Below, one piece after another: positions 8,099-56,300 of a DNA stretch of 64,000 nt. The notes below the pieces were generated by a model. That model was not told the DNA's origin. It did no database searches and saw only the letters and a program-made list of their open reading frames with translations. The translations under genes were made by a program, and so were the position numbers. Origin of the DNA: an uncultured Gemmatimonadales bacterium (lineage in GTDB: Bacteria; Gemmatimonadota; Gemmatimonadetes; Gemmatimonadales; GWC2-71-9). Location of the stretch: NCBI GenBank assembly GCA_963697065.1, contig CAVOMQ010000003.1:43974-107973 (forward strand). Reading direction: 5' to 3'. Numbering within the stretch: position 1 is the first letter of the stretch; every line of letters begins with the position of its first letter.

Positions 8099-9310
8099 TC
8101 ACCTCTCAGGCGCCAGCTTGTACACGCGAACTTCCGATTCGTTCGGATGGTACGTATAGCGTGCGACCAGATATCCGTTGGCGATCTGGAGCACCTCCAG
8201 GTCGCCCGGCATAACAGTCGTACCGAGGAACCGCCCGCTACGATCAAACACGTCCCAGGTGGCCGGGTCGCCCGTCACCGCCCACATCCGAGCCCAGAGG
8301 CGGTGCGCATCGTCAACCTTCAGCGCGGTGTAGGCGGGCTCCCGCGGAGGAAATCGAATCCATTCGAGTGCCAGGCTGTCGTCATGCCTGAGCACCGGAT
8401 CACTCCGCTGGAGACGCGCCCGCTTGAGTCGCCGCAGCAGCTCCGGTGTCACCGATCCGCGCTCCCGCCCGATCCGGATCAGGCCCAGCAGTCTACCGGT
8501 GGGAGCGCGCTGCTGTATCTCGAACGCCGAGCCGTCCGTGTAGTACCACCAGTCGTCATCCACCGCAATGGAGCCGATCTGGCCGAGTGGCGTCTGGCCG
8601 GCGACGCTGTAGTGCATGGCGAAGCCGAAGCGCTCGGCCCCGAAGAACGGGCCGAGCTCCGTCAGCTTTCCTTTGCGATCGACGTGATAGACGACAATCG
8701 TGTCGATGTCGGTCTGGCGATTCTGAGGCAGGAGCTGATTGTGCGTCGTGCCGATCATCTCGCCCGACGCGAACGCGCCGAGGATCGACAGGAACGGTCG
8801 TTCCCACCCCCCTCGGGGGAGCTTCGAGCGAATGTCGGGCGGGTTCTCGACGCGGCGGGTTTGAAGGACGGAACCCCTGCGGCTCAGTTGCATCAGCCGA
8901 TTGGCCACCCCATCCCATTCCACCACCGTACCACCGGCCATCGTGAAGAGATTCGACGGCCCTTCGCGCCCCGAGATGCCGACGACGTCGATGCCGAATC
9001 GGTAGCCACCGTCAGGCTTGAAGAAGGCGACGCGATCGTGGTCGAATTCCGCCACCACGACATTACCGTCCATCAGCCGCAGCGCGCCGGAGACGATACC
9101 GAGGTCAGCGTTGCCTTTGGCGCCCGGCCCGCCCAATGCGACAATCGGAGCCGGCTCGACTACTCGCCAGCTGTTCGTGTCCAATATTGGCGCGGCGTTC
9201 GAGACGATTCTCACCCCAGCGCTATCCCGGACGCGTGGCAGCTGTGCGTGGCACCGACCAAGCCATGCCGCCAACATTACGCTCGCGCATACGAAGCGGC
9301 TAAGGGCCAT
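8099..9310 (-). CDS. 6-bladed beta-propeller secreted protein
   Basis: Signal peptide, VRDSAGVRIVSN, GREGPS, VDDAHRLWAR..WDVFDRSGRFLG motifs. Confidence 0.7.
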   Translation of the reverse strand: MALSRFVCASVMLAAWLGRCHAQLPRVRDSAGVRIVSNAAPILDTNSWRVVEPAPIVALGGPGAKGNADLGIVSGALRLMDGNVVVAEFDHDRVAFFKPDGGYRFGIDVVGISGREGPSNLFTMAGGTVVEWDGVANRLMQLSRRGSVLQTRRVENPPDIRSKLPRGGWERPFLSILGAFASGEMIGTTHNQLLPQNRQTDIDTIVVYHVDRKGKLTELGPFFGAERFGFAMHYSVAGQTPLGQIGSIAVDDDWWYYTDGSAFEIQQRAPTGRLLGLIRIGRERGSVTPELLRRLKRARLQRSDPVLRHDDSLALEWIRFPPREPAYTALKVDDAHRLWARMWAVTGDPATWDVFDRSGRFLGTTVMPGDLEVLQIANGYLVARYTYHPNESEVRVYKLAPER

Positions 9311-10076
9311 GTCGTGCACTCTGCAGCACCCGCCGGACAGTGTCAAGCCCGTAATCGGTCTTCTCAGCGTCTTGCAAGTCCGGTCTAACAGTCCTCCCAA
9401 GGAGGCTTGCAACGAGCCGGTTCAATTGCTGGAAGGGCATCGCACCGGCAACCGGCAGTCCGTTGATGAACGACGTTGGCGTTCCAACAATGCCAAGTTG
9501 TGCGGCTTCCCGGGTATCCCGATTCACCCTGTCCTGATACATCCCGGATTGGACGCAAATGCTGTAGCGCCTCATGTCTGGAATACGGATGCTGTCCCCA
9601 ATGTCGTGCCATGGCTCGTGCGTTACTGCGGTCGCTCCGAAGCTGAACGCCGCTCGATAGTACTCCGGGAATCTCCCCTGATCGGCTGCGCACTGGCCGC
9701 CCTCGTGTAGCTGGAGCTCGGCAAGCCCGGGTTGGAATAGGAGGTTCTTGACAACAACGGCAACCACATCGGGGTAGCGCCGCCGGAGCTTCTCGATTGT
9801 GGCAGAAAAACTCACGCAATAGCCACAGGCGTAGTTCACAAACTCGACGATAACGACCGGCGCGTCGTCCGGGCCCATCCGGGGTCCTTCGGCGGCCATT
9901 TGATAGAAGAGCGTCGGGTCTATGCTTCCGTCGGGCAGCGAGGGCAACGAGAGCCGCTGCGCGCTGCGGCGCCGTTGATAGGCTGCAACCCGGTCTCGAA
10001 TGCCCAGGATAACCAGCCCGAGTGCGACGACATACAGAATCTTCGTCGCGCGGTTAAGCATCTTGGCGATTGGCAT
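9300..10076 (-). CDS. DsbA-family thiol-disulfide oxidoreductase (module 1)
   Basis: GPDDAPVVIVEFVNYACGYC and GIVGTPTSFING motifs; N-terminal TM anchor. Confidence 0.85.
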   Translation of the reverse strand: MPIAKMLNRATKILYVVALGLVILGIRDRVAAYQRRRSAQRLSLPSLPDGSIDPTLFYQMAAEGPRMGPDDAPVVIVEFVNYACGYCVSFSATIEKLRRRYPDVVAVVVKNLLFQPGLAELQLHEGGQCAADQGRFPEYYRAAFSFGATAVTHEPWHDIGDSIRIPDMRRYSICVQSGMYQDRVNRDTREAAQLGIVGTPTSFINGLPVAGAMPFQQLNRLVASLLGRTVRPDLQDAEKTDYGLDTVRRVLQSARHGP

Positions 10077-45463: not shown

Positions 45464-45537
45464 GTGGGGGCTCCTTTCCGCATCCGCTGAAAGGAACGCA
45501 ACCCATGTGCCGGAAGGCAATGCCGGAAAGGCAGCCC

Positions 45538-45677
45538 GGAGCCCAGGGCCCAGAGCCCCGCATGTCGGACTCGGCGCGTAGAGTCAACATCACGGCGATG
45601 CGACCAGACGCCACACCGCCGAACGCTGTGCAAGCCGAGTTCCGTGTTCGGGGCCATGGGCTCTGGGCCATGGGCTC
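45538..45677. repeat. REPIN/MITE-like palindromic element, copy 1
   Basis: Left arm GAGCCCCGCA.GTCGGACTCGGC and right arm GCCGAGT...GTGTTCGGGGCCATGGGCTC shared with 51488-51649. Confidence 0.65.
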
Positions 45678-45684
45678 GCTTCTT

Positions 45685-47307
45685 CTAGTACCGCCATCCT
45701 TTCGTATCCGCCCCCGCCGGCGCATGGGCGAGCAGCTGCGCCTCCATCTTCTGGAGAATCTCCGGCATCCGCGGCCCCCAGCAGTGCGGCGCCATCGGCT
45801 GGAAGACGATCTCGCCGGTCCACTTCGGATTCGCCGTGGTGGTGAGGAAATCATCGAGCATGTGGACGCCCATGTTGAGGTAATACGTGTCCATGGCACC
45901 GACGTAGACGTTGATCTTGTCAGCCACCTTCGGCCCCAGCGTCGACCAGTTGGTCTGGAGGATGTTCCGCAGGTCGTAGTGTTGCTTCCAGTAGTCGGCC
46001 ACCTGGTGGTCGATCACACCGGTCACCTTGTTCCAGATCGGCGCCGGGTAGCCGCCCGCTCCGACCGGACTGTACGTCGCCTGCCAGATGTCCCACTGAC
46101 CGCCGGAGCGGCCGCTGTCGCCCACCACCAGCTCGTACCAGTTCTCGTCCTTCATCATCGTGGTGATGTTGCCATCGGGCCGCCGGACGTCGGGGCGTTC
46201 CACCTTCATCCAGCCGTGATCGACCCAATAGGCGTTGCTGTCGCTGTAGATGTTCACGATCTGGTGGTAGCGGAAGTCCACCGCGTCGGGACAGAGCGCC
46301 CAGGTGCCGCCGTAGAAGTCGGGGTAGAAGACCTGCTGGGAGAGCGCGATCCATCCGCCCGTCGATCCGCCGGTGAGGAGCCGCGCCCACGGCTGGCCGA
46401 TCACGCGGAAGCGCTTCTCGACCGCCGGGATCAGCTCCTGCATGATCGCGTCGCCGTACGGGCCGTTGTTGGCCGAGTTGACGCCGTAGGAATCGTCGTA
46501 ATAGGGCGACGGATGCTGGAGCGAGACCATGATCACCCGCGGCGTGCTGTCGGCGAGCCATTGCGCGTTGGCACCGCCGCCCGGCGCGCGCAGCGAGAAG
46601 TGGCCTTCGTCGTAGACGATCGGGTACTTCACGTCGGGGTGTGTGTCATAGCCCTTCGGCAGCAGGACGATGGCGCCGAGGAAGATCGGCTGCCCCCACC
46701 ACTTCGAGAGAATGTCGCTCTTGATCCTGATGTGCTTGACATATTGGTCGTCAGCCGGCTCGGTGATCGGCGGAATCACCTGGTCAGCGACAAGCCGGAT
46801 CGGCGTCGACGACTTGGGATCGAAGGTGATCTGCACCGGCTTGCCATGGATGTTCCCCGGCGAGCTCTTCCAATCCTGTCCTTCCCACTGGTCCATGTGC
46901 AGCCAGACCACATGCCCGTCGGCGCGCGCGAACCGGGTGTAGATGTTGACGAACGGTTCCACCCAGTAGGTGCCGGCGGGGATGTCGCGCAGCGAGCGCG
47001 CCGGGTAGCCGAAGGTCGATGCGTCGATCACGGCCGGAGCGCCGGGCTTGAGTGCCTCGACATTCACGCCGAAGAGCGGCACGCCGTCTTCTCCGGTCTG
47101 GTCGATCGGGGTGCGGCGGGCGTCGTTGACCCGGGTGATCGCCACATACACGCGCCCGGTGATCGGGCCGGCGTGCGCGGACGCGGGGAACGAGATCTCG
47201 AAACGCGGGCCGGTGGCACGCTGGCCCGAGATGGCGGCGATGGGGAGTATGGTGATGATCGCCATGCAGACGGGCTGCGGCCAACGCCGTCGGACAGTCA
47301 GTATCAC
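45685..47307 (-). CDS. Secreted alpha/beta hydrolase (putative esterase family)
   Basis: IVLLPKGYD, NNGPYGDAIMQELIPAVE, LLTGGSTGGW nucleophile elbow; GGAGG RBS with GTG. Confidence 0.8.
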   Translation of the reverse strand: MILTVRRRWPQPVCMAIITILPIAAISGQRATGPRFEISFPASAHAGPITGRVYVAITRVNDARRTPIDQTGEDGVPLFGVNVEALKPGAPAVIDASTFGYPARSLRDIPAGTYWVEPFVNIYTRFARADGHVVWLHMDQWEGQDWKSSPGNIHGKPVQITFDPKSSTPIRLVADQVIPPITEPADDQYVKHIRIKSDILSKWWGQPIFLGAIVLLPKGYDTHPDVKYPIVYDEGHFSLRAPGGGANAQWLADSTPRVIMVSLQHPSPYYDDSYGVNSANNGPYGDAIMQELIPAVEKRFRVIGQPWARLLTGGSTGGWIALSQQVFYPDFYGGTWALCPDAVDFRYHQIVNIYSDSNAYWVDHGWMKVERPDVRRPDGNITTMMKDENWYELVVGDSGRSGGQWDIWQATYSPVGAGGYPAPIWNKVTGVIDHQVADYWKQHYDLRNILQTNWSTLGPKVADKINVYVGAMDTYYLNMGVHMLDDFLTTTANPKWTGEIVFQPMAPHCWGPRMPEILQKMEAQLLAHAPAGADTKGWRY

Positions 47308-47441
47308 GGTTCCTCCTGGAGGACTGAACTATAGCCCGGGCCGGACCAAGCCTGGCGCTCCCTGCCGGCCAATGCCCGACTGACGCCATTCTCGCCCGCG
47401 TCAGATCCTGATCCGAGCGCGCACCACGCGTTCCAATCCGC

Positions 47442-47470
47442 TTGACACTCGTTCGCAACGCGAGTATTAC
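47442..47470 (+). promoter_or_regulatory. sigma70-type promoter TTGACA-N17-TATTAC
   Basis: Both boxes conserved at 51934-51962 while the spacer differs. Confidence 0.65.
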
Positions 47471-47471
47471 C

Positions 47472-48134
47472 TTGTTTGTACACCAGCAGGATCCGGATCC
47501 CCTGACCGCATTGGACATCGATTGCGTTGGCGCACTGCATGGGCGACTGCTCGCCGGATACCCTGAGGCGGGCCCCGAGATCGCGGCTATCGCCTACGGT
47601 CCGCTGGTCGAGTACCTCATCGCCCATCACCCTTGCGTTGACCCCGGCGCGGTTCACGACGCCGTGGCCGACGCGGTCGTTGCCTATCTCGACCGCCCGG
47701 CCCGGGCCAACGGGGTCGGCGGACGCCAGGTCATGGCGCATCTTCAGCTTGCCGCGTGGCGGAACATCCTGAACCATCGGCGCCGGGAAGGTCGGCTCAA
47801 GCGGCGTGAACAGCGTTACGCAGCCGACCTCGGCCGGCGGCGGCGCGATTCGGACCGGCGGGTTGTTGCTCTTCTGGGTTCCGCGGGGAAAGTATTAGAG
47901 GAGGCGATAGATCCGGGCGAGTCCGCGGAAGTGTCAGCGATGGAGCCCGCCGGGTGGAGCACCGAGGAACGGACCGTCTGGGTGCTCTTCCGGGCCGGCG
48001 AACGACGAACTGCGGAGTACGCCGCGGCGCTCGGGATCACGGGTCGGCCCGTGTCAGACCAGCGGGTGATCGTCAAGCGCATCAAGGAGCGGCTCCGGGT
48101 GCGCGTGAAGCGGGGGGGGGGGCGTAGACGATGA
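47472..48134 (+). CDS. ECF sigma-factor-like regulator, copy 1
   Basis: Region-2-like VHDAVADAVVAYL..HLQLAAWRNILNHRRRE and region-4-like ERTVWVLFRAG..EYAAALGI..VKRIKERLR; TGA overlaps the dsbA ATG. Start inferred. Confidence 0.65.
   Translation: MFVHQQDPDPLTALDIDCVGALHGRLLAGYPEAGPEIAAIAYGPLVEYLIAHHPCVDPGAVHDAVADAVVAYLDRPARANGVGGRQVMAHLQLAAWRNILNHRRREGRLKRREQRYAADLGRRRRDSDRRVVALLGSAGKVLEEAIDPGESAEVSAMEPAGWSTEERTVWVLFRAGERRTAEYAAALGITGRPVSDQRVIVKRIKERLRVRVKRGGGRRR
48112..48122 (+). repeat. G11 homopolymer at the 3' end of ECF copy 1
   Basis: Counted directly. Confidence 0.85.
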
Positions 48135-48982
48135 GGTTCAGCAACGGGATTACAAACGGCTTGATGGTTGTCTCGGTCGTCTGCGCCGTCAGTCTGACGG
48201 GTATGCAGGTTTGGGAGCGGTTCGGTCCGGCGGTGCCGCCCACTGGGCCGTCGGCGCTTCGTGGCGCCGACACGGTCCGCATTCCGGATTGGCAACACGA
48301 CACAGTCGGTGGCCATCATCTGGGACTCGCGACAGCTCCTGTTACGATCATCGAGTTCGCGGACCTCGAGTGCCCCGTATGCCGGCAGTTCACTATCGGT
48401 GCTTTGGCATACATACGTGCGAAATACCCAACGGATGTGCAAGTCGTGTTTCGCCATTGGCCACTGAGCTATCATCATTTCGCGTACCCCGCGGCGCGGG
48501 CCGCTGAGTGCGCGGCCGCCCAGGGGCGATTTGATGCATTCCAGCAGTTGGTGCACGCCAAACAGGACTCGCTGGGGCTGAAGGCGTTCGGGGACTTTGC
48601 CCGGGAGGCGGAAGTGCCGGATGCGCGGGCGTTCGCCACGTGCAATGCCCAAACCGGTCCCGTTGCAGCGGTCGAAGCCGATATCAACGTCGCGAAGGCC
48701 GTGGGCGGTCGGGGGACGCCGACCATCGTCATCAACGGCTTGCGGTTAACTGGTGCGCCCGATTCCGCCTCGCTCGGTCGGCTCATCGAATCCGCGTTGA
48801 AGCAAATCCACGTTTCCGGCGGTACCAGCCCCGGGAAGGGGATTTCCCGGACTCGGCTGGAGCTGCCAACTACCGGCACTCTCGATCACCTGGAAACGCC
48901 TGCGGCCGTGGCATCCAACATCTTCACGCCGAACCCGAATCACGCCATCGCAACGCCCGAAGGAACCATACTCAGGAGGTAA
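48131..48982 (+). CDS. DsbA-family oxidoreductase (module 3)
   Basis: GLATAPVTIIEFADLECPVC, FRHWPLSYH, GGRGTPTIVING; N-terminal TM. Confidence 0.85.
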   Translation: MRFSNGITNGLMVVSVVCAVSLTGMQVWERFGPAVPPTGPSALRGADTVRIPDWQHDTVGGHHLGLATAPVTIIEFADLECPVCRQFTIGALAYIRAKYPTDVQVVFRHWPLSYHHFAYPAARAAECAAAQGRFDAFQQLVHAKQDSLGLKAFGDFAREAEVPDARAFATCNAQTGPVAAVEADINVAKAVGGRGTPTIVINGLRLTGAPDSASLGRLIESALKQIHVSGGTSPGKGISRTRLELPTTGTLDHLETPAAVASNIFTPNPNHAIATPEGTILRR

Positions 48983-48984
48983 CT

Positions 48985-49278
48985 GTGTTCAGCAAGCAGA
49001 TGATCGTCACCGGCCTTGCGAGTGTTACCGTCCTTGCCGCCGCGCTGGTGCATCCGCCAACCGCACAAGCAATGTGGCCGTCCTGCGGGCCGGGAGTGTA
49101 CACCATGTGCCTGGACGGGTTGGATCTTCCGGAGTGCTATGACGATCCAATATCGCTATGCCACGACTATCTCCAGCGCAACTACAGCTGCGACGGCAAC
49201 GTGATCGGGGCATACTGCCAGGTAAACGAAGACTGCGATTGGTCCAGCGAGGTGGTATGTTACGTCGAAGCCACCTGA
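48985..49278 (+). CDS. Secreted 8-Cys peptide P3
   Basis: GGAGG RBS with GTG; signal ending PPTAQA; C-x7-C-x8-C-x7-C-x9-C-x8-C-x5-C-x7-C. Confidence 0.75.
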   Translation: MFSKQMIVTGLASVTVLAAALVHPPTAQAMWPSCGPGVYTMCLDGLDLPECYDDPISLCHDYLQRNYSCDGNVIGAYCQVNEDCDWSSEVVCYVEAT

Positions 49279-49365
49279 GCCGCGTGGGACTCGCCAGTGT
49301 GGGGCAACGCAAGAGGAAACCGCAATGGTCCACCCGGCCGCGGATAGCAGCGATGGAGGGTTGGT

Positions 49366-51477
49366 GTGATTGTCCTTCAGCTATTGGCCGCGCTATCCAC
49401 GAATGGGGTAGCACAAGGCTGCCGAGATGGCGCGACGTGGAAGGACTCGGCCGAAGCGCTGATTCGCCGTTTGGAGCAACACGATTCGAGTGCACGGTCG
49501 AGGCTCGTTCCATACGCTGGTTGCCTCGTCGCCTATGCAGCTGAGCGTCAACTCGGTGCTGCTGACGCGAAACTGATGGCCAAGGTGGCCTTGGTGATGG
49601 CGGGGCCGATTTCGCCGCCGGAATCAACCCGCACGGCTCGCGAGGATCTCTGGCGCTTCCCGGCGGTGCAGGCATTGCGGCGGGGGCTGGCCGTCGACAG
49701 CGGTGACGCGTGGTACGCCGAGCAGCTCGAACGGATCACACCGTATCCATACATCTGGCTCGCGCCGGCCCGGGAACTGACACACCTCCGTGCCCTCGCG
49801 GCCCGCAACGCGATGCTCCCGGTCGATCTTGCCATGACCCGCATCCGGCTCGAACTTGAAACCGGTTCTCTCGATTCGGCGGCGCTGGCGTTCCGTCGAC
49901 TCGATTCAATATCGATCCCATTGCCGCAGTGGACCCATCTCGCTGCCGAGATCACCTTTGCGCGGGGCGATTCGGCGGCGGCCCGAAGCACCTACTACGC
50001 CGGCGCTGCCGCGATCTGCGATTCCAGTGATCGACAGATCTATACTCAGGAACTCTCGTGGATCGCGACGCCAGAGGAGTTGGCAATGTGGGACTCGCTG
50101 CCAATGACACCAGGCGCGCATCGTGATTGGTTGGAGGCGTTCTGGGCGCGGCGGGATCTGGCAGACGGGCAGTTGCCCGGTACTCGGTTGCCGGAGCAGT
50201 TCCGCCGCTGGCGCGAGGCGTTGCGCGACTACCGCTGGGACAGCGACGGCGATGTGGCGCTTGGGACGCCGGATCACGGCTTTGCCGAAGAGGATGGCGT
50301 CTGGAAATCCGACGACCTTCGCGTCCTCGGACCCAGTAACGCCGTGAACCGATGGCGGGCTAGGACCCGGATTCTCGATGACCGAGGTGCCATTGTGATG
50401 CGGCACGGCGATCCGATGCAGCTTCCACTGCCGCCGGGAAAGGCGTCAATCACAGAGCAGAACCTTTCGTGGCAGACACCGCGAGGGTCACTCATCATCG
50501 GCTTTTCCCGGATCAATGTCGCGAGCGGCCGCTTCGGCATGGTCGCGCGAAACATTCCGATGGGGGATCCCATGGTTGCCTGCGCATTCGATGCTCGACT
50601 CTGTCAACTTGCGCGCTTTGCGCACAGCCCGCTTGATCCCGCGGTGGCGACATCACACGGAATACTGGGCCAAGTCCTCAGATACTACGGAATGGAACGT
50701 GCGAGGGCCGAGCACACCGACGCCAACACGACCACATTCCGCGACTCCCTCGGCGCCATCACCCAGGCATTCGGTATCCCGAACGGCGGCGTACTTGTCG
50801 TTTTCGCCGTGCCCGCCGGCAGACTGACCAAGAATCCCGATGTGCCCGCCTTCGCCGCCAATCTCCGGGTGATCATCGGCGACTCCGCCGCGGGGCGCAT
50901 CGTCGCGGCGCTCGACTCTGTGCGCCATTGGCACACGGACGCCCCGGTCAGCGCCGATGCATGGCTGAGCGCGTACCTCACCGTTCCAGCGCCTGTCGGA
51001 ACCTGGGATGTGGCCATCACCATCTCCGACACGGCGAAGACGAGGGGCTCCGGCGTGCGCCTCGATGCCATTCCGGTGGTCATGTTCGACGGGAAGGCGC
51101 TCCAACTCAGCGACCCGATCCTCGGCCGCAGTGACGCGGGGCTGGTCTGGCATCACGACGGCGTCGCCATCCCCCTCAACCCCACCAATGCCTGGCGTAC
51201 CGCCGAACCGGTCGAGCTCACCGTGGAGGCCGATGGTCTCGTTCCCGGGCGCAGCTACAGCACCCGCTTCGAACTGTGGAAGGTGGCCGGGCACCCCAAA
51301 GCCCCCAGCGTCACCGTGGCGTTCACGGCGAAGACCGACAGCGCGCACGAGGTGATCCAACGCGAGCTCTCGGTACGCGAGCTCGATCCGGGCGACTACC
51401 GGCTGGTGATCCGGCTGCAGGACGCCGTCACGAAACAGGCCGTGACTCGCGAGCGCCGAGTGGCGGTGCGCCGGTAG
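49366..51477 (+). CDS. GWxTD-domain-like secreted protein with C-terminal Ig-like folds
   Basis: WIATPEELAMWDSL..WLEAFWARRD..EQFRRW..LDDRGAIVMRHGDP follows the GWxTD-domain pattern. Confidence 0.65.
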   Translation: MIVLQLLAALSTNGVAQGCRDGATWKDSAEALIRRLEQHDSSARSRLVPYAGCLVAYAAERQLGAADAKLMAKVALVMAGPISPPESTRTAREDLWRFPAVQALRRGLAVDSGDAWYAEQLERITPYPYIWLAPARELTHLRALAARNAMLPVDLAMTRIRLELETGSLDSAALAFRRLDSISIPLPQWTHLAAEITFARGDSAAARSTYYAGAAAICDSSDRQIYTQELSWIATPEELAMWDSLPMTPGAHRDWLEAFWARRDLADGQLPGTRLPEQFRRWREALRDYRWDSDGDVALGTPDHGFAEEDGVWKSDDLRVLGPSNAVNRWRARTRILDDRGAIVMRHGDPMQLPLPPGKASITEQNLSWQTPRGSLIIGFSRINVASGRFGMVARNIPMGDPMVACAFDARLCQLARFAHSPLDPAVATSHGILGQVLRYYGMERARAEHTDANTTTFRDSLGAITQAFGIPNGGVLVVFAVPAGRLTKNPDVPAFAANLRVIIGDSAAGRIVAALDSVRHWHTDAPVSADAWLSAYLTVPAPVGTWDVAITISDTAKTRGSGVRLDAIPVVMFDGKALQLSDPILGRSDAGLVWHHDGVAIPLNPTNAWRTAEPVELTVEADGLVPGRSYSTRFELWKVAGHPKAPSVTVAFTAKTDSAHEVIQRELSVRELDPGDYRLVIRLQDAVTKQAVTRERRVAVRR

Positions 51478-51487
51478 TACCAAACGA

Positions 51488-51649
51488 AAAGGCGCCCTGA
51501 GCCCATGGCCCTGAGCCCATGGCCCTGAGCCCCGCAGGTCGGACTCGGCCAGCGCTACCGCCGGACAGCAGTGCAAGAACTCGATGCCGCGCTGGCCTCC
51601 GTTCGCAGGCCGAGTCGGGTGTTCGGGGCCATGGGCTCAGGGCGCCTTT
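51488..51649. repeat. REPIN/MITE-like palindromic element, copy 2, with 23-bp perfect terminal inverted repeats
   Basis: AAAGGCGCCCTGAGCCCATGGCC (51488-51510) and its reverse complement (51627-51649). Confidence 0.75.
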
Positions 51650-51657
51650 CGCTCCTC

Positions 51658-51779
51658 TCATTTCACCCGCTTGCAGAGATCCATCATCGCCGCCTGGCAC
51701 GCCCGCGACCGGATATCGTGCCGCGTGCCGACGAAACTCCGCCGCACCGCGTCCACCTGCCCATGCACACTGTAGCCGA
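51658..51779 (-). pseudogene. cinA: Orphan 3' end of cinA
   Basis: 101-bp direct repeat (51679-51779 vs 55066-55166, 6 mismatches by eye) with its own tail and stop (DLCKRVK*). Confidence 0.85.
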
Positions 51780-51780
51780 C

Positions 51781-51907
51781 GGCACGCTGGCCCGAGAGGG
51801 CGGCCACGGGGGGCATGGCGACTGTCGCGATGCAGGCGAGCAGAGGCCGATGCGGCCGGAAGGTGGGTCTCACGGTTCCTCCTCGAGTGGTGAACCATAG
51901 CCCGGGC
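51781..51907 (-). pseudogene. Diverged copy of the 5' end and RBS of the esterase gene
   Basis: GGCACGCTGGCCCGAGA matches 47215-47231; CACGGTTCCTCCT...TGAAC.ATAGCCCGGGC matches about 47305-47341. Confidence 0.75.
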
Positions 51908-51933
51908 CTCACGCTGCATGGGTCCCACACCGC

Positions 51934-51962
51934 TTGACAGCCGTTCCCGGCGCAGGTATTAC
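51934..51962 (+). promoter_or_regulatory. sigma70-type promoter TTGACA-N17-TATTAC (copy 2)
   Basis: Read directly; same context as 47442-47470. Confidence 0.65.
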
Positions 51963-51963
51963 C

Positions 51964-52615
51964 TTGCTTGTACACCAGCAGGACTTGGATCCCCTTGGCC
52001 GGACCAGACGTCGATCGCGCTGGCGCACTGCACCTGCGGCTGCTGGCCGGGCACCCCGAGGCGGGGGCCGGAATCGCGGCGATCGCCTACGGTCCACTGG
52101 TGACCTACTTGGGCTCCCGTTTCCCTTACGTTGACCCGGACGCGGCTTACGACGCGGTCTCCGACGCGGTCATGGCCTACCTCGAACAGCCGGCCCGGGC
52201 CAAGGCGGTCGACGGACGCCAGCTCATGGCCCACCTTCAGCTTGCCGCCTGGCGTAACATGTTCAACCGTTTGCGTGAGGATGGCCGGCGCAGGCAGCGC
52301 GAGCGGCGATACGGCGACGCCAGGAACTGGCGGCGGCTGGAGTCGGCGCGGCGTGTTGTTGCTCTTGTGGGTTCGGCGGGGAAGGTATTACAGGAGGCGA
52401 TAGATCCGGGCGAGTCCACGGAAGTGTCAGCGATGGAGCCCGCCGGGTGGAGCACCGAGGAACGGACCGTCTGGGTGCTCTTCCGGGCCGGCGAACGACG
52501 AACTGCGGAGTACGCCGCGGCGCTCGGGATCACGGGTCGGCCCGTGTCAGACCAGCGAGTGATCGTCGAGCGCATCAAGGAGCGGCTCCGGGTGCGCGTG
52601 AAGCGGGGGGGGGGG
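51964..52615 (+). CDS. ECF sigma-factor-like regulator, copy 2 (1-nt indel near 52000; stop position depends on G-tract length)
   Basis: Paralog of 47472-48134. With G11 the frame runs on into peptide P4; with G10 it would stop at TGA near 52657. Confidence 0.6.
52605..52615 (+). repeat. G11 homopolymer at the 3' end of ECF copy 2
   Basis: Counted directly. Confidence 0.85.
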
Positions 52616-52690
52616 CGCTGCGAGCAACGATCGTTGTGTTCGGAATACCGGTCTGTGAGATCATTGTTCAATTCCAGCAAGGAGCGTCAG

Positions 52691-52975
52691 ATGCATCAAC
52701 AGCCGATTCGCCTTCTGGCGGCGGGCGTTGCGATCACCGCACTAGTCATCCTGGCGACCCAGCCAAGCAAGGCGCGCGCTGAGGAGGCAAAGTGTACCGA
52801 CGGGAAGGCGAATGAGGGGTGCCTGGAGTGCGACCCAGGCGGGAGCTGTAGCTTCAGTCACCCGGGCTTCAAGTCAAATGGCAGCGCGAACTCGTGGACC
52901 TGCGAGGTATCCGCGGGCGATCACTGCCAACACGGAGTCGCGAACTATGTGGACTGGAAGACCGAGGACGAGTAG
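52691..52975 (+). CDS. Secreted 6-Cys peptide P4
   Basis: AAGGAG RBS; signal ending QPSKARA; C-x8-C-x2-C-x5-C-x17-C-x7-C. Confidence 0.75.
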   Translation: MHQQPIRLLAAGVAITALVILATQPSKARAEEAKCTDGKANEGCLECDPGGSCSFSHPGFKSNGSANSWTCEVSAGDHCQHGVANYVDWKTEDE

Positions 52976-53045: not shown

Positions 53046-54194
53046 ATGCAACGCGTCCTCGTGAACGCGGTGAGTTTATGCGCACTTGCTGGTTTCGCCG
53101 CCGCCTGTGCCCGCGACGCCAAGTCTGGAGCGGCGGGCCCGGACCAGAATCAGGCCGACCTGTTGCCGGACGATCACTTGCACCCCGTGGTGGTATCGGG
53201 CAGGCTGCTGGTGTCAAGCACCGCGTTCGGACGGCCCGAGTACGCACTGACGCAGGGGAATCGGCTCTGGATCTCCGACCAGGCTGGCGACCCATACATT
53301 CACCTTATCGATATTTCGGGGCGCCGAATTGTCGCATCCTTTGGTCACACCGGTGTCGGGCCCGGGGACTTTGATCAGGGAATCTCCGGTCTGTCGCGAC
53401 GGCCTGGGGACGCCACCGCAGCCTGGGCGCTCAGTCTCGGTCTCCGGCGCCTCACGAGGGTGCCCGCGATCAGCGCCGACACCGTGGTCACAATTCCCCT
53501 CACTGCACCCCGCTTTGCCGATCATGCAGAGTGGCTTACACGGGGCCGCCTGTTGCTGATCGGCGAAACGGATACCAGCCGCTTCGTGCTCGCTGATTCC
53601 AACGGGAAGCCGCTCCGGGTTGTGTCGGGCGATCTGGTCGGCGGGGATTCCATTTCGCTGGCGACACGAGTGGACCGCTCGAGCGGCCTTTCGCTTTGCG
53701 TGGCACCTGACGGTGCCCGTTTTGCCGTCTTCTACATTCACGCCGGACGCATGGATCTCTATGACTCCAATGCCGCACTGATTCGCCATGGCGACGTGCC
53801 GTTTGCGATCAACGGCTCATTCCGGCGCGATTCCGCAGGCCGCTGGCACGCGCACGACATCCGCCGCTACTACGAAGCCTGCTCGAGCAGTTCGACCCGT
53901 ATCTACGCGCTGTTCAGCGGCAAGCGGCTCGGACCGCGGTACACCGGAGCTGACGTCGAAGCGCAGTTCGTGCACATCTTCGATTGGACCGGCCGGTTCC
54001 TGGGTGCACTGCACCTCGATCAACCCCTGGCCGGGATGACAACGAGTGGCGACAGCGTGATGTACGGCATCGGGGCCGATGGCAGCCGGATCTATTCGTA
54101 CCGGCTGCCGTCGTTCAACTCCGCCCCAGCGGTGTCCGTTACGCCGACGAAGTCTAGCGGACTACTATTCGACGCCGGGGCCTCCTTATGGTGA
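53046..54194 (+). CDS. BF3164/TolB-like 6-blade propeller lipoprotein (module 4)
   Basis: Lipobox FAAAC; FGHTGVGPGDF; RIYALFSGK..FVHIFDWTG; paralog of 10092-11207. Confidence 0.7.
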   Translation: MQRVLVNAVSLCALAGFAAACARDAKSGAAGPDQNQADLLPDDHLHPVVVSGRLLVSSTAFGRPEYALTQGNRLWISDQAGDPYIHLIDISGRRIVASFGHTGVGPGDFDQGISGLSRRPGDATAAWALSLGLRRLTRVPAISADTVVTIPLTAPRFADHAEWLTRGRLLLIGETDTSRFVLADSNGKPLRVVSGDLVGGDSISLATRVDRSSGLSLCVAPDGARFAVFYIHAGRMDLYDSNAALIRHGDVPFAINGSFRRDSAGRWHAHDIRRYYEACSSSSTRIYALFSGKRLGPRYTGADVEAQFVHIFDWTGRFLGALHLDQPLAGMTTSGDSVMYGIGADGSRIYSYRLPSFNSAPAVSVTPTKSSGLLFDAGASLW

Positions 54195-54892
54195 AGGTCC
54201 ACATGATGGCTCGGTCGCACGATTGGGTGACAATCGTGCTGTTGCTCGTGGCAGGAATACTCGGCGGGTATGCGGCCTATGTACGATTCGGACCAGGACA
54301 GGGTGCCCGCGGCGACGAACCGGCATCAGCGCAATATGGCCGAGTTGGCGCGGAACGCTTCCGGCGTGCTGCCGAGACTGGGGATCGCATCGGACCGGAG
54401 AATGCCCCGATAACCGTCGTCGTCTTCTCCAACTACCTTTGTGAGTACTGCCGACGGTTTGAACCGACCCTGACACAACTCCATCATCGATATCCCGACG
54501 AGGTCGCGATCGTCTGGAAACACTACGCTCCCCTTCTTACACGCCGAGCATCAACGGTCGACCTCGCGGCCGACTGTGCGGCGGATCAAGGGGATTTCGC
54601 GCCGTTCAATCATGCCCTGTTCACCGACACACTTGTGGCACGCGTGCCGGACCGATGGCTGCGTATCGGTCAGCGCATCGGGATCGACACCGCAACCATG
54701 GCCGGATGCATTCGGTCGCGACGCCATGCCGCCGACGTAATGCACGACACGGAGGAAGGGCAGGCGCTGGGCGTGACAGGCACGCCGACCTCGTTCATCA
54801 ACGGCGTTCGCATCGTGGGCCAGGTACCATTCGACATCCTGGACTCAGTCGTATCGTCGCAACTTCGTAGCGGGCGGCCCAGTACAAAGTGA
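54188..54892 (+). CDS. DsbA-family oxidoreductase (module 4)
   Basis: GPENAPITVVVFSNYLCEYC, GVTGTPTSFING; N-terminal TM. Confidence 0.85.
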   Translation: MVKVHMMARSHDWVTIVLLLVAGILGGYAAYVRFGPGQGARGDEPASAQYGRVGAERFRRAAETGDRIGPENAPITVVVFSNYLCEYCRRFEPTLTQLHHRYPDEVAIVWKHYAPLLTRRASTVDLAADCAADQGDFAPFNHALFTDTLVARVPDRWLRIGQRIGIDTATMAGCIRSRRHAADVMHDTEEGQALGVTGTPTSFINGVRIVGQVPFDILDSVVSSQLRSGRPSTK

Positions 54893-55041: not shown

Positions 55042-56300
55042 CTATGGTTGCACTCTGAGCAATGTATCCATCATCGCCGCCTGGCACGCCCGCGACCGGA
55101 TGTCGTGCCGCGGGCCGACGAAACTCCGCCGTACCGCGTCCACCTGCCCGCGCACGCTGTAGCCGAACCACACCGTCCCCACCGGCTTCTCCTGCGTGCC
55201 ACCGTCCGGTCCCGCGATGCCGGTGATCGCGATCGCCACCTCGGCGCCATGGCGCCGTGCCGCCCCCGCCGCCATCTCGCGCACCGTCTCCTCCGACACC
55301 GCGCCGTAGCGCTCGATCGTCTCTTCGCGGACGTCGAGCAGTTCGACCTTGAGGCGGTTGGCGTAGCAGATCACGCCACCGAGAAAGACATCGGACGACC
55401 CCGGAATCTCGGTGATGCGCGTGCCGAGCATCCCGCCGGTACACGACTCCGCCACCGCGAGCTTGAGCCCGCGCGCGCGCAGCGCGTCGAGCACCACCGC
55501 GGCGAGATCCGTGTCGCCTTCGCCGTAGACCCAACGTTCCGCCGCCTGCACAGGCGCGCGATTCCCGCCTTGAGCGCTGCATCCGCCGCGGCCGGGTCCA
55601 TGTGCCACGCGGTGAGCCGCAAATCCACGCCGCGCAGTCCCGGCAGGTAGGCCAGCGTCAATGGCGCCAGCCGCGCTTCGACGATGGCGACGGCTTCGGC
55701 CAGGGTCGATTCGGCCACACCGGTGGTCCGCAGCGTCGCCGAGCGCACCACGGCGCCGCCGAAGCGCGGCGCCAGGCGCGGAATCACCTCGTGCCCGGTG
55801 AGCATCCGCATCTCGTGCGGCACGCCGGGCAGCATGATGACGATGCCGCGCGGCGTCTCGATCCAGAGCCCTGGTGCGGTACCCCATTGGTTGGCGAGCA
55901 CCTCGGCACCTTCCGGCACCATCGCCTGACTGCGGTTCGACGCCACCGGCACTCGCCCGAGCTTCGCGAAGCGCGCTTCGAGGCGGTGCCAGACGTCGTC
56001 GTCGAACTTGAGCGGCAGGCCGAGGAGTTGCGCCACCGTTTCGCGGCTGCAGTCGTCGCTGGTGGGGCCGAGTCCGCCGGTGGTGATCACCACCGCCGCG
56101 CGCTGCAGGGCCGCGTCGACGGCGTCGCGAATCTGCGCCGGGTCGTCGCTGACGGCGGTACGCCGCACCACCGGCATCCCTGCGGCCGCGAGTGCGGTGG
56201 CCAGGAACGCCGAATTGGTGTCGACGGTGAAGCCCAGCAGCAGCTCGGTACCGATCGTCACCAGCTCGATGGCGATGCCGGACTCCGGAGTGCCGTCCAT
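55042..56300 (-). CDS. cinA: Competence/damage-inducible protein CinA (1-nt frameshift near 55552)
   Basis: VTIGTELLLGFTVDTNS, TTGGLGPTSDD, AVAESCTGG, ITGIAGPDGG..KPVGTVW. Confidence 0.9.

Follow-up and report, generated by a model that had tools for sequence, protein, structure and literature searches.

A candidate contingency tract at the 3' end of two tandem, probably gene-converted sigma-like genes of an uncultured Gemmatimonadales bacterium

Two sigma-like genes with a common 3' half

We analyzed a stretch of 64,000 nucleotides (nt) from the genome of an uncultured Gemmatimonadales bacterium, hereafter the window, in which an esterase-like gene and cinA enclose a tandem of two gene cassettes, M3 and M4. 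Each cassette is composed of a promoter-like site, a gene whose product resembles sigma factors of the extracytoplasmic function (ECF) type, and cargo genes for a DsbA-like protein, a small Cys-rich secreted peptide and a large exported protein. The two sigma genes share a nearly identical 3' half that ends in an uninterrupted run of 11 G's (G11). Judging from the sequence, this run is a real, conserved and slippage-prone element, located where translation of the sigma gene stops and translation of the cargo starts. The features on which the analysis centers are the following.

47511..48134, + strand: M3 ECF-like sigma gene, 207 amino acids (aa) from TTG 47511, start uncertain (the longest open reading frame, ORF, runs from 47442); its TGA stop lies within the ATGA at dsbA
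51995..52975, + strand: M4 ECF-like sigma gene as assembled, 326 aa from TTG 51995, start uncertain; G11 leaves the frame open into the downstream peptide gene P4
47899..48124, + strand: M3 copy of the near-identical segment (region-4-like half, G run and 2 nt), delimited by alignment and third codon positions
52392..52617, + strand: M4 copy of the near-identical segment, delimited in the same way
48112..48122, + strand: M3 G11 run, read from the sequence as (C)GG GGG GGG GGG, that is Arg-Gly-Gly-Gly, ending 8 nt before the dsbA ATG
52605..52615, + strand: M4 G11 run, read from the sequence and followed by a 75-nt AT-richer spacer that carries AAGGAG (52679-52684) ahead of the P4 ATG

Upstream of the TTG codons, a 1-nt indel shifts the earlier parts of M3 and M4 into different frames. 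The protein encoded by the two genes has no match in Pfam, including the Pfam region-4 domain, or in NCBIfam, and no meaningful sequence match in the PDB; we based its identification on the matches of other family members and on the predicted fold. An exhaustive profile search defined a family of 2265 representatives at E-values of 1e-3 or better. Some members, found at E-values down to 1e-49, match Sigma70_r2 (PF04542), P0008 for example with 33 bits against a cut-off of 24 bits, and several carry the Joint Genome Institute (JGI) name ECF sigma. The AlphaFold model has a mean predicted local distance difference test (pLDDT) score of 82.6 and consists of a helical N-terminal domain, a long linker helix and three C-terminal helices. 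Foldseek, run with this model against the PDB, mainly retrieved domains of ECF sigma factors, all with weak E-values. The N-terminal domain resembles region 2 of sigmaE and SigC with template modeling (TM) scores of 0.73-0.75 (0.75 for 4lup_A) at Foldseek E-values > 0.1, and the C-terminal helices resemble sigma4 with TM scores of 0.69 (8jzt_A) and 0.43-0.47 (3vfz, 3vep and 3hug), again at weak E-values. These data weakly suggest that M3 and M4 encode a divergent ECF-like sigma factor. An earlier interpretation made from the DNA letters without database searches (the sequence-only reading) had taken the near-identical segment for the region-4 part of a sigma factor. Family members and predicted fold, with the weak Foldseek E-values just mentioned, support this assignment as a region-4-like half, the segment corresponding to residues ~130-204 with a predicted helix-turn-helix.

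Like ECF sigma factors, the M3 and M4 proteins have about 200 aa, a predicted sigma2-sigma4-like architecture of two domains and a gene that heads an operon for envelope or exported proteins. Unlike known ECF sigma factors, which direct transcription from a promoter class of their own by binding core RNA polymerase and usually have a cognate anti-sigma, they lack a Pfam or NCBIfam match of their own and a recognizable anti-sigma gene, a Pfam scan having recognized no anti-sigma domain among the neighboring genes. The G run encodes Arg-Gly-Gly-Gly right behind the last predicted helix, in a tail that is disordered in the model (pLDDT < 50). Many distant family members also end in R-A/G-G-G (RAGG or RGGG) at the protein level.

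In a phylum-wide sample of 401 genomes, the family was found in the genus of the window only. A genus-wide search detected it in 6 of 52 genomes and yielded additional loci in the genomes G439, G440 and G442, while a DNA-level search from a three-sequence alignment returned one distant metagenome locus and genome G018, and nothing else. G018 (OY970263.1, an uncultured Gemmatimonadales metagenome-assembled genome, or MAG, of the Microflora Danica project) and G439 belong to the same genus as the window and have a single cassette at the same site. The window's own sigma protein comes from a single contig, and no other assembly carries the same protein.

Distant members of the family (~30% identity) head a conserved five-gene operon in two unrelated metagenomes (loci L023, 5001-9981, and L025, 5001-10043). 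The sigma-like gene is followed there by genes for a protein of ~125 aa, an IrrE/Peptidase_M78-like protein with weak CapP/RmrA matches, a protein of ~420 aa and a HerA-like ATPase (PADLOC models HerA and mad8). One operon adjoins a methyltransferase-like gene and the other a Cas4-Cas1 gene. This setting looks like a defense island, unlike the cargo of DsbA-like proteins and Cys-rich peptides in M3 and M4.

The near-identical segment and its G run

The ungapped pairwise alignment of 47899-48122 with 52392-52615 contains three mismatches in 224 nt (at 47925, 48065 and 48075), whereas the 5' coding parts of the two sigma genes are 77% identical (88 differences in 384 nt). In the codon alignment, the 3' part has 4 differences in 225 nt. 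The jump in identity extends to third codon positions, 40 of 128 of which differ in the 5' part as compared to 1 of 75 in the 3' part (P-value = 1.5e-8, Fisher test). High identity starts near 47861, the 38 nt that precede 47899 holding five mismatches, and beyond G11 both copies share CG and then diverge completely. At the protein level, M3 is about as close to G439 as to M4 in the 5' part (63% and 65% identity, respectively), while in the 3' part it shares 97% of residues with M4 and 61% with G439. In the genome of the window (3.18 Mb in five contigs) the 224-nt segment occurs twice, in M3 and M4 only.

The block of near-identity is abrupt and includes synonymous sites, and the relationships within it conflict with those of its flanks when G439 is taken for comparison, as gene conversion would produce. 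Purifying selection on a DNA-binding domain is insufficient as an explanation because synonymous sites are identical too. Since the jump reaches third codon positions, we conclude that a recent gene conversion, or a recombination with a donor sharing the same 3' half, very probably homogenized the region-4-like half. Such an event would have covered the last ~225-265 nt of both sigma genes, comprising the region-4-like half and the terminal G run, and would have ended where both homology and gene end. The outgroups are equidistant from the M3 and M4 copies within the converted block and thus favor neither direction of transfer. The sequence-only reading had pointed to the three mismatches next to clearly more diverged 5' halves, to the end of homology 2 nt past G11 and to a recent conversion or recombination. 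The alignments bear out the first two, and the third gains from the inclusion of synonymous sites and from the contradiction with the relationships of the 5' halves. That reading had also proposed the G run as the point at which cargo is swapped, which holds for the M3/M4 pair only. In G439, ~50-60 nt of the dsbA 5' end sit between the run and the change of cargo, and in G018 the same cargo as in M3 resumes past a 40-nt insertion downstream of the run.

Gene conversion between tandem paralogs, or concerted evolution, is well known from duplicated tuf genes and from pilE/pilS. As in those cases, the M3/M4 block is sharply bounded, nearly identical also at synonymous sites and located in otherwise diverged copies that lie on the same strand a few kb apart. 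Unlike them, it points to a single event over one domain, and nothing hints at a dedicated mechanism.

The 99% identity, and perhaps the equal length of the two tracts, could in principle stem from cross-talk during consensus calling or polishing between paralogs that lie 4.5 kb apart and whose true 3' halves are as diverged as their 5' halves. The assembly is of the metagenome type with few contigs, and multi-mapping in polishing can homogenize repeats. We regard such an artifact as very improbable, however. Consensus collapse between the copies is unlikely because three differences are kept within the segment and identity climbs gradually between 47861 and 47899, at its 5' edge. Given a segment this short, long reads would reach across both copies and into their unique flanks, and the boundary falls at the gene end rather than at an arbitrary point.

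The two G11 runs are the only G/C runs of at least 9 nt in the window. The whole genome contains 16, 7, 2, 2 and 1 G/C runs of 8, 9, 10, 11 and 12 nt, respectively, and two of the five runs of at least 10 nt are those at homologous codons of the M3 and M4 paralogs. GGG accounts for 21% of the Gly codons of this genome and CGG for 37% of its Arg codons; none of the 243 Gly-Gly-Gly tripeptides in confident ORFs is spelled GGGGGGGGG (nine G's). A survey of homologs for tract conservation had been set beforehand as a check, and the tract proved not to be short in them: G018 has G12 at exactly the codons of the M3/M4 run, and G439 has G8-A-G4 at the same codons, with 13 nt from the preceding C to the following TAGACG and the same frame, as in M3. 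In this half of the gene, M3 shares 45-47% of third positions with either G018 or G439, essentially the level of saturation. Four more distant homologs (in G030, in G440 and two in G442) have no run. Because synonymous sites are saturated, GGG is a minority codon and no tripeptide elsewhere is made of GGG throughout, we conclude from these comparisons that three lineages have maintained the nucleotide sequence of the homopolymer itself, or of its first eight G's at least. The retention of the run, judged by codon bias and saturation and by its absence from the four distant homologs, goes beyond coding needs.

Two side observations concern long G runs. In G018 (locus L009, ~9270-9330, minus strand), ~40 extra nt separate G12 from the dsbA start and contain a second run, G6, followed by AAGACGATG. 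This insert looks like a partial repeat of the junction made of G run and ACGATG that is present once in M3, and a 19-codon mini-ORF opens straight after the G12. The longest homopolymer of the window's own genome, a G12 outside the window (C1:1004602-1004613; read as C12 from the coding strand), is separated by 3 nt from the downstream ATG of a gene for a small protein (~88 aa) that resembles LuxR/GerE-like helix-turn-helix proteins by eye. It is the second case of a long G/C run attached to a regulator gene.

Reading frames and the possible role of the run

We computed the frame outcomes of runs from G9 to G13 in M3, M4 and G018. The assembled G11 of M3 gives the 207-aa protein with a TGA inside the ATGA that overlaps the dsbA start at 48131. 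With G12 or G9 a TAG stop ends 3 nt ahead of the dsbA ATG, and with G10 or G13 a 128-aa out-of-frame tail crosses the first 377 nt of dsbA. In M4, G10 or G13 yields a sigma protein of 220 aa with a TGA at 52656-52658, 32 nt short of the P4 start. The assembled G11 results in an in-frame fusion, via a 25-codon linker, to P4 and its signal peptide (ATG 52691, stop at 52975), and G12 or G9 in a tail that ends 92 nt into P4. The ATGA overlap in M3, as well as the read-through into P4 in M4 with a G10 stop near 52657, had been read off the letters before and are reproduced here. In G018, G11 would give an ATGA overlap with dsbA, and the assembled G12 gives an in-frame fusion to DsbA. A stop/start overlap is accordingly found as ATGA in M3 and as TTGA in G439, and G11 would restore one in G018. 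In silico, a change by one unit between G9 and G13 therefore shifts the stop, the coupling or the fusion. The AT-richer spacer behind the M4 run contains AAGGAG, the ribosome-binding site of P4, and is not coding-like in any frame, so the sigma-P4 fusion would not be an old arrangement.

Homopolymeric-tract contingency loci are known from Campylobacter jejuni, Neisseria and Haemophilus and include poly-G tracts by which neighboring frames are split or joined, as at cj0031/cj0032 of C. jejuni, and G runs of at least 9 nt are established as highly mutable in Neisseria, Campylobacter and Bordetella. Both G11 runs exceed the length of ~8-9 nt from which an uninterrupted homopolymer in or near a gene can slip. 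Because 11 G's are intrinsically prone to slipped-strand gain and loss of a G, a contingency (phase-variable) role is the single most likely explanation of the run, one that we put forward tentatively. Slipped-strand gain or loss of one G would relocate the sigma stop with each slip. M3 would then alternate between the coupled stop/start of G11, the stop just before the ATG of G12 or G9 and the out-of-frame tail over the dsbA start of G10 or G13. M4 would alternate between the free 220-aa sigma of G10, the sigma-P4 fusion of G11, as assembled, and the tail into P4 of G12. Since the converted block includes the run, the conversion may have copied into M4 a tract length suited to M3, which may be why M4 sits in the fusion frame.

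In several respects the M3 and M4 runs resemble the tracts of Campylobacter, Neisseria and Haemophilus: an uninterrupted run of at least nine G's lies in a coding region and its length determines the downstream frame; one length of the M4 run fuses two neighboring ORFs, as in cj0031/cj0032-type tracts; and the run is kept against codon preference, with one relative interrupted. Unlike the tracts of those loci, the run forms the very 3' terminus of a regulator gene, the protein domains would stay intact in every frame, and a slip would affect the stop position, translational coupling or fusion. The host also differs, being a high-GC soil Gemmatimonadales bacterium. Reversible frameshifts at the poly-C tract of Bordetella bvgS and at the 7C tract of Mycobacterium tuberculosis glpK are known, the former in a regulator and the latter in a high-GC genome. 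The runs described here resemble them as G/C homopolymers that are candidate sites of reversible frameshifting in a regulator gene of a high-GC genome; in bvgS and glpK, however, the shift inactivates the protein, whereas here it would alter the tail and the downstream coupling alone. No ECF sigma gene with such a tract is known to have been described, and a literature search returned none, the nearest source being a review on M. tuberculosis (PMC13104627).

Several observations weigh against a contingency role. The three frames have outcomes that are not parallel in M3, M4 and G018, as they would be in a classic ON/OFF switch. Since the run comes after the last predicted helix, at the far 3' end, a frameshift leaves the sigma domains intact. 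The M4 spacer, not coding-like in any frame, speaks against an old fusion, and the R-A/G-G-G tails of distant family members explain part of the G-richness at the protein level. Finally, G018 is a Nanopore-only MAG and the other tract-bearing assemblies are long-read-like. Runs of at least 10 nt are unreliable in such assemblies, and the difference between G11 and G12, and even the A in G439, could be consensus errors.

This last point deserves closer consideration. The data set of G018 is Nanopore-only and Medaka-polished (PMC12313526), and runs of at least 10 nt are still problematic on Nanopore R10.4 (PMC9262707). G018 is assembled in one contig with 82% completeness, G439 in six contigs with 56% and the window's genome in five contigs with 93%, and all three resemble long-read MAGs in which indels persist. 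Because runs of at least 10 nt are unreliable in such MAGs, the difference of one G between assemblies is no evidence of slippage, and the fusion frame of M4 may be off by one G. The G11 call of M3 is probably correct, as M3 and G439 agree in length and in the overlapping stop and start. A C9 inside ftsH (C2:210061) is read correctly in the assembly. We also followed frame continuity across G/C runs of 5-7 nt, where the frame changes on the same strand in 9-15% of cases as compared to 7% at random positions, which is uninformative. The comparison is silent on long runs, since clearly coding flanks on both sides are found for 2 of the 16 runs of 8 nt and for none of at least 9 nt.

These doubts on tract length bear on the explanation that we rank next after a contingency role and consider possible although rather unlikely. 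It holds that the tract is fixed, a by-product of a Gly-rich tail (R-G-G-G) that overlaps a Shine-Dalgarno or re-initiation site of the coupled downstream gene. Conversion would keep the run in M4, its length would be stable in the population, and the odd frames of M4 and G018 would be ±1 long-read consensus errors or recent neutral accidents. The M3 run, which ends 8 nt from the dsbA ATG, occupies the position expected of a Shine-Dalgarno site, next to the ATGA stop/start overlap. The A that breaks the run in G439 gives rise to GGAGG at a distance of 7 nt from the TTG start, GGGGGA is found 7 nt upstream of the DsbA ATG in a relative in G442, and the 3' end of the 16S rRNA carries the canonical anti-Shine-Dalgarno sequence CCUCC. 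A Shine-Dalgarno role of the run is thus plausible in M3 and G439. A fixed tract would also agree with the RAGG or RGGG ends that are frequent in distant family members, with the sensible ends obtained with one G fewer (the M4 stop at 52656 and the ATGA overlap in G018), with the error-prone long runs of the Nanopore-only G018 assembly, and with a 1-nt deletion in cinA of the window's own genome relative to two relatives, possibly an assembly indel. However, a Shine-Dalgarno site needs just 5-6 G's, and a synonymous interruption (CGC GGC ...) would be free and would remove the mutational hazard. Yet CGG GGG GGG is retained in three lineages with otherwise saturated synonymous sites. No start codon follows the M4 run, so this role cannot maintain the run there, and the agreement in total length between M3 and G439 argues that the M3 call, at least, is right.

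In M4 as assembled, and likewise in G018, the sigma protein would carry a C-terminal extension with a membrane segment. Some ECF (group 4) sigma factors have C-terminal extensions that act as built-in regulators, and M4 and G018 would be similar to these. They differ in that the extension arises in one phase of the tract only, through a linker that is not coding-like. A more specific version of the contingency role, to which we assign little chance, is a stochastic tether switch: one phase would make a free sigma and the other a sigma fused by a short linker to the signal-anchor of the next exported protein (P4 in M4 with G11, DsbA in G018 with G12). The tethered sigma would sit at the membrane and hence be silenced, or releasable by a protease. 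Slippage, or a conversion importing another tract length, would then replace a separate anti-sigma factor and might link the activity of the regulator to the export of its cargo.

The two products of such a locus, for example a free sigma and a sigma-cargo fusion, might otherwise be made side by side, if polymerase or ribosome slipped on the run at a set frequency during expression. The sequence G GGG GGG fits the slippery pattern X XXY YYZ, Gly-tRNA can re-pair in any register, and in several cases the alternative frames reach defined ends within 3-30 nt. Nevertheless, we consider programmed slippage improbable. No stimulatory RNA structure is apparent, as the fold z-scores against shuffles are +0.3 in M3, +0.4 in M4 and +1.3 in G018, the tails in the alternative frames are unrelated between loci, and what lies behind the M4 run is not coding-like. 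Productive transcriptional slippage, moreover, is documented mainly for A/T runs. The combination of slippery run, conserved structure and conserved second-frame product that marks programmed frameshifting was not found in M3, M4 or G018. A frameshift stimulator or an attenuator was also rejected as a candidate, RNA folding around the run being no better than in shuffled sequences at these three loci.

The possibility that the run is the spacer of an internal cargo promoter, setting the distance between its -35 and -10 boxes as in Neisseria porA, is scarcely credible. The M4 cargo, a small secreted peptide and a lipoprotein, would suit it. On the other hand, no sigma-70-type pair of hexamers flanks the run in either copy, and the sole motif shared behind it, ACGAT, occurs at +7 in M3, +2 in G018 and +12 in M4, which leaves no fixed -10. 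The distance of 8 nt between the M3 run and the ATG has no room for a -10 box and a leader. We rejected a porA-type switch, with a spacer of ~16-18 nt, for lack of the hexamer pair and because the run is inside an ORF.

We regard the G run as a well-defined candidate for, as opposed to a demonstrated case of, a homopolymer switch located at the 3' end of an ECF-like sigma gene, which would add a new twist to a well-known mechanism. If the run slips, the switch would have an unusual position, the stop codon of a sigma gene, from where it would tune the coupling to, or the fusion with, the exported proteins encoded downstream. It would extend the logic of contingency loci to Gemmatimonadota, a free-living soil phylum where phase variation has hardly been studied, and would show gene conversion moving a tract length between cassettes and re-phasing the neighboring operon. 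If the run is fixed, the locus would present an ordinary gene conversion between paralogous regulators, together with a warning against trusting frames downstream of runs of at least 10 nt in long-read MAGs.

The cassettes and their insertion site

The other features of the locus, from the divergent esterase-like gene to cinA, are given below.

45685..47307, - strand: flanking esterase-like gene, 540 aa, divergent from the M3 sigma gene (Pfam Esterase, 2e-6)
47442..47470, + strand: promoter-like site upstream of the M3 sigma gene, TTGACA (47442-47447), 17-nt spacer and TATTAC (47465-47470), read from the sequence
48131..48982, + strand: M3 cargo 1, membrane-anchored DsbA-like protein with thioredoxin fold, 283 aa (Pfam Thioredoxin_4, 2.6e-24; DSBA, 9e-7)
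48985..49278, + strand: M3 cargo 2 (P3), 97-aa signal-peptide protein with 8 Cys, from translation; no Pfam match; 36% identity to the G018 counterpart
49366..51477, + strand: M3 cargo 3, 703-aa protein with a weak, sub-threshold match to the GWxTD domain; 65% identity to the G018 gene
51658..51975, - strand: junction between the units, a spare cinA 3' end (51679-51779) joined to a spare esterase 5' end (51775-51921), from repeat families D9 and D12
51934..51962, + strand: promoter-like site upstream of the M4 sigma gene, TTGACA (51934-51939), 17-nt spacer and TATTAC (51957-51962), read from the sequence
52691..52975, + strand: M4 cargo 1 (P4), 94-aa signal-peptide protein with 6 Cys, from translation; no Pfam match
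53061..54194, + strand: M4 cargo 2, predicted lipoprotein, 377 aa, beta-propeller-like, with a lipobox-like N-terminus and a weak, sub-threshold TolB_like match
54188..54892, + strand: M4 cargo 3, second DsbA-like protein, 234 aa (Pfam Thioredoxin_4, 4e-18; DSBA, 9e-17)
55042..56300, - strand: flanking cinA, in two frames owing to a 1-nt deletion near 55548 that G018 and G439 lack (Pfam MoCF_biosynth and CinA_KH; alignment)

The motif TTGACA-N17-TATTAC is conserved upstream of M3, M4 and the G018 cassette and resembles a housekeeping promoter; a strict consensus promoter scan skips it, as such a scan requires T at position 6 of the second hexamer. The genes that flank the cassettes are far better conserved than those inside. 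The esterase shares 94% of its residues with the G018 counterpart and 92.5% with that of G439, and cinA shares 90% with both, so that the flanks of G018 and G439 are 90-94% identical in protein while the cassette genes are merely 36-65% identical (the M3 DsbA-like protein, for example, 64% to the G018 gene). From these comparisons we conclude that the interval between esterase and cinA is a hypervariable cassette site. At the junction between the two units, the spare cinA end (51679-51779) is 94% identical to 55066-55166 and the spare esterase end (51775-51921) is 76% identical to 47209-47355. The 105-aa ORF of the junction matches the end of cinA of G018 and G439 (tblastn).

The 1-nt deletion in cinA (~55548) lies outside any homopolymer and splits the gene, which is intact in G018 and G439, into two frames. 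Either cinA is a true pseudogene beside the inserted cassettes, or the deletion is an indel of the assembly.

The M3 cargo is followed at 51480-51660 by an inverted repeat that is long and rich in GC and includes GCCCTGAGCCCATG-like units in tandem. Part of the repeat recurs past the 3' end of the esterase gene at 45534-45575 (90% identity over 42 nt). This element may be a terminator or similar to repetitive extragenic palindromic (REP) elements.

In G440, where a homolog of the M4 lipoprotein shares 39% identity, the genes are found in reversed order (locus L027, 2800-6121): a Cys-rich secreted peptide, a propeller-like protein, a DsbA-like protein and then the sigma-like gene. This gene set is without a poly-G run and begins beside a tRNA gene.

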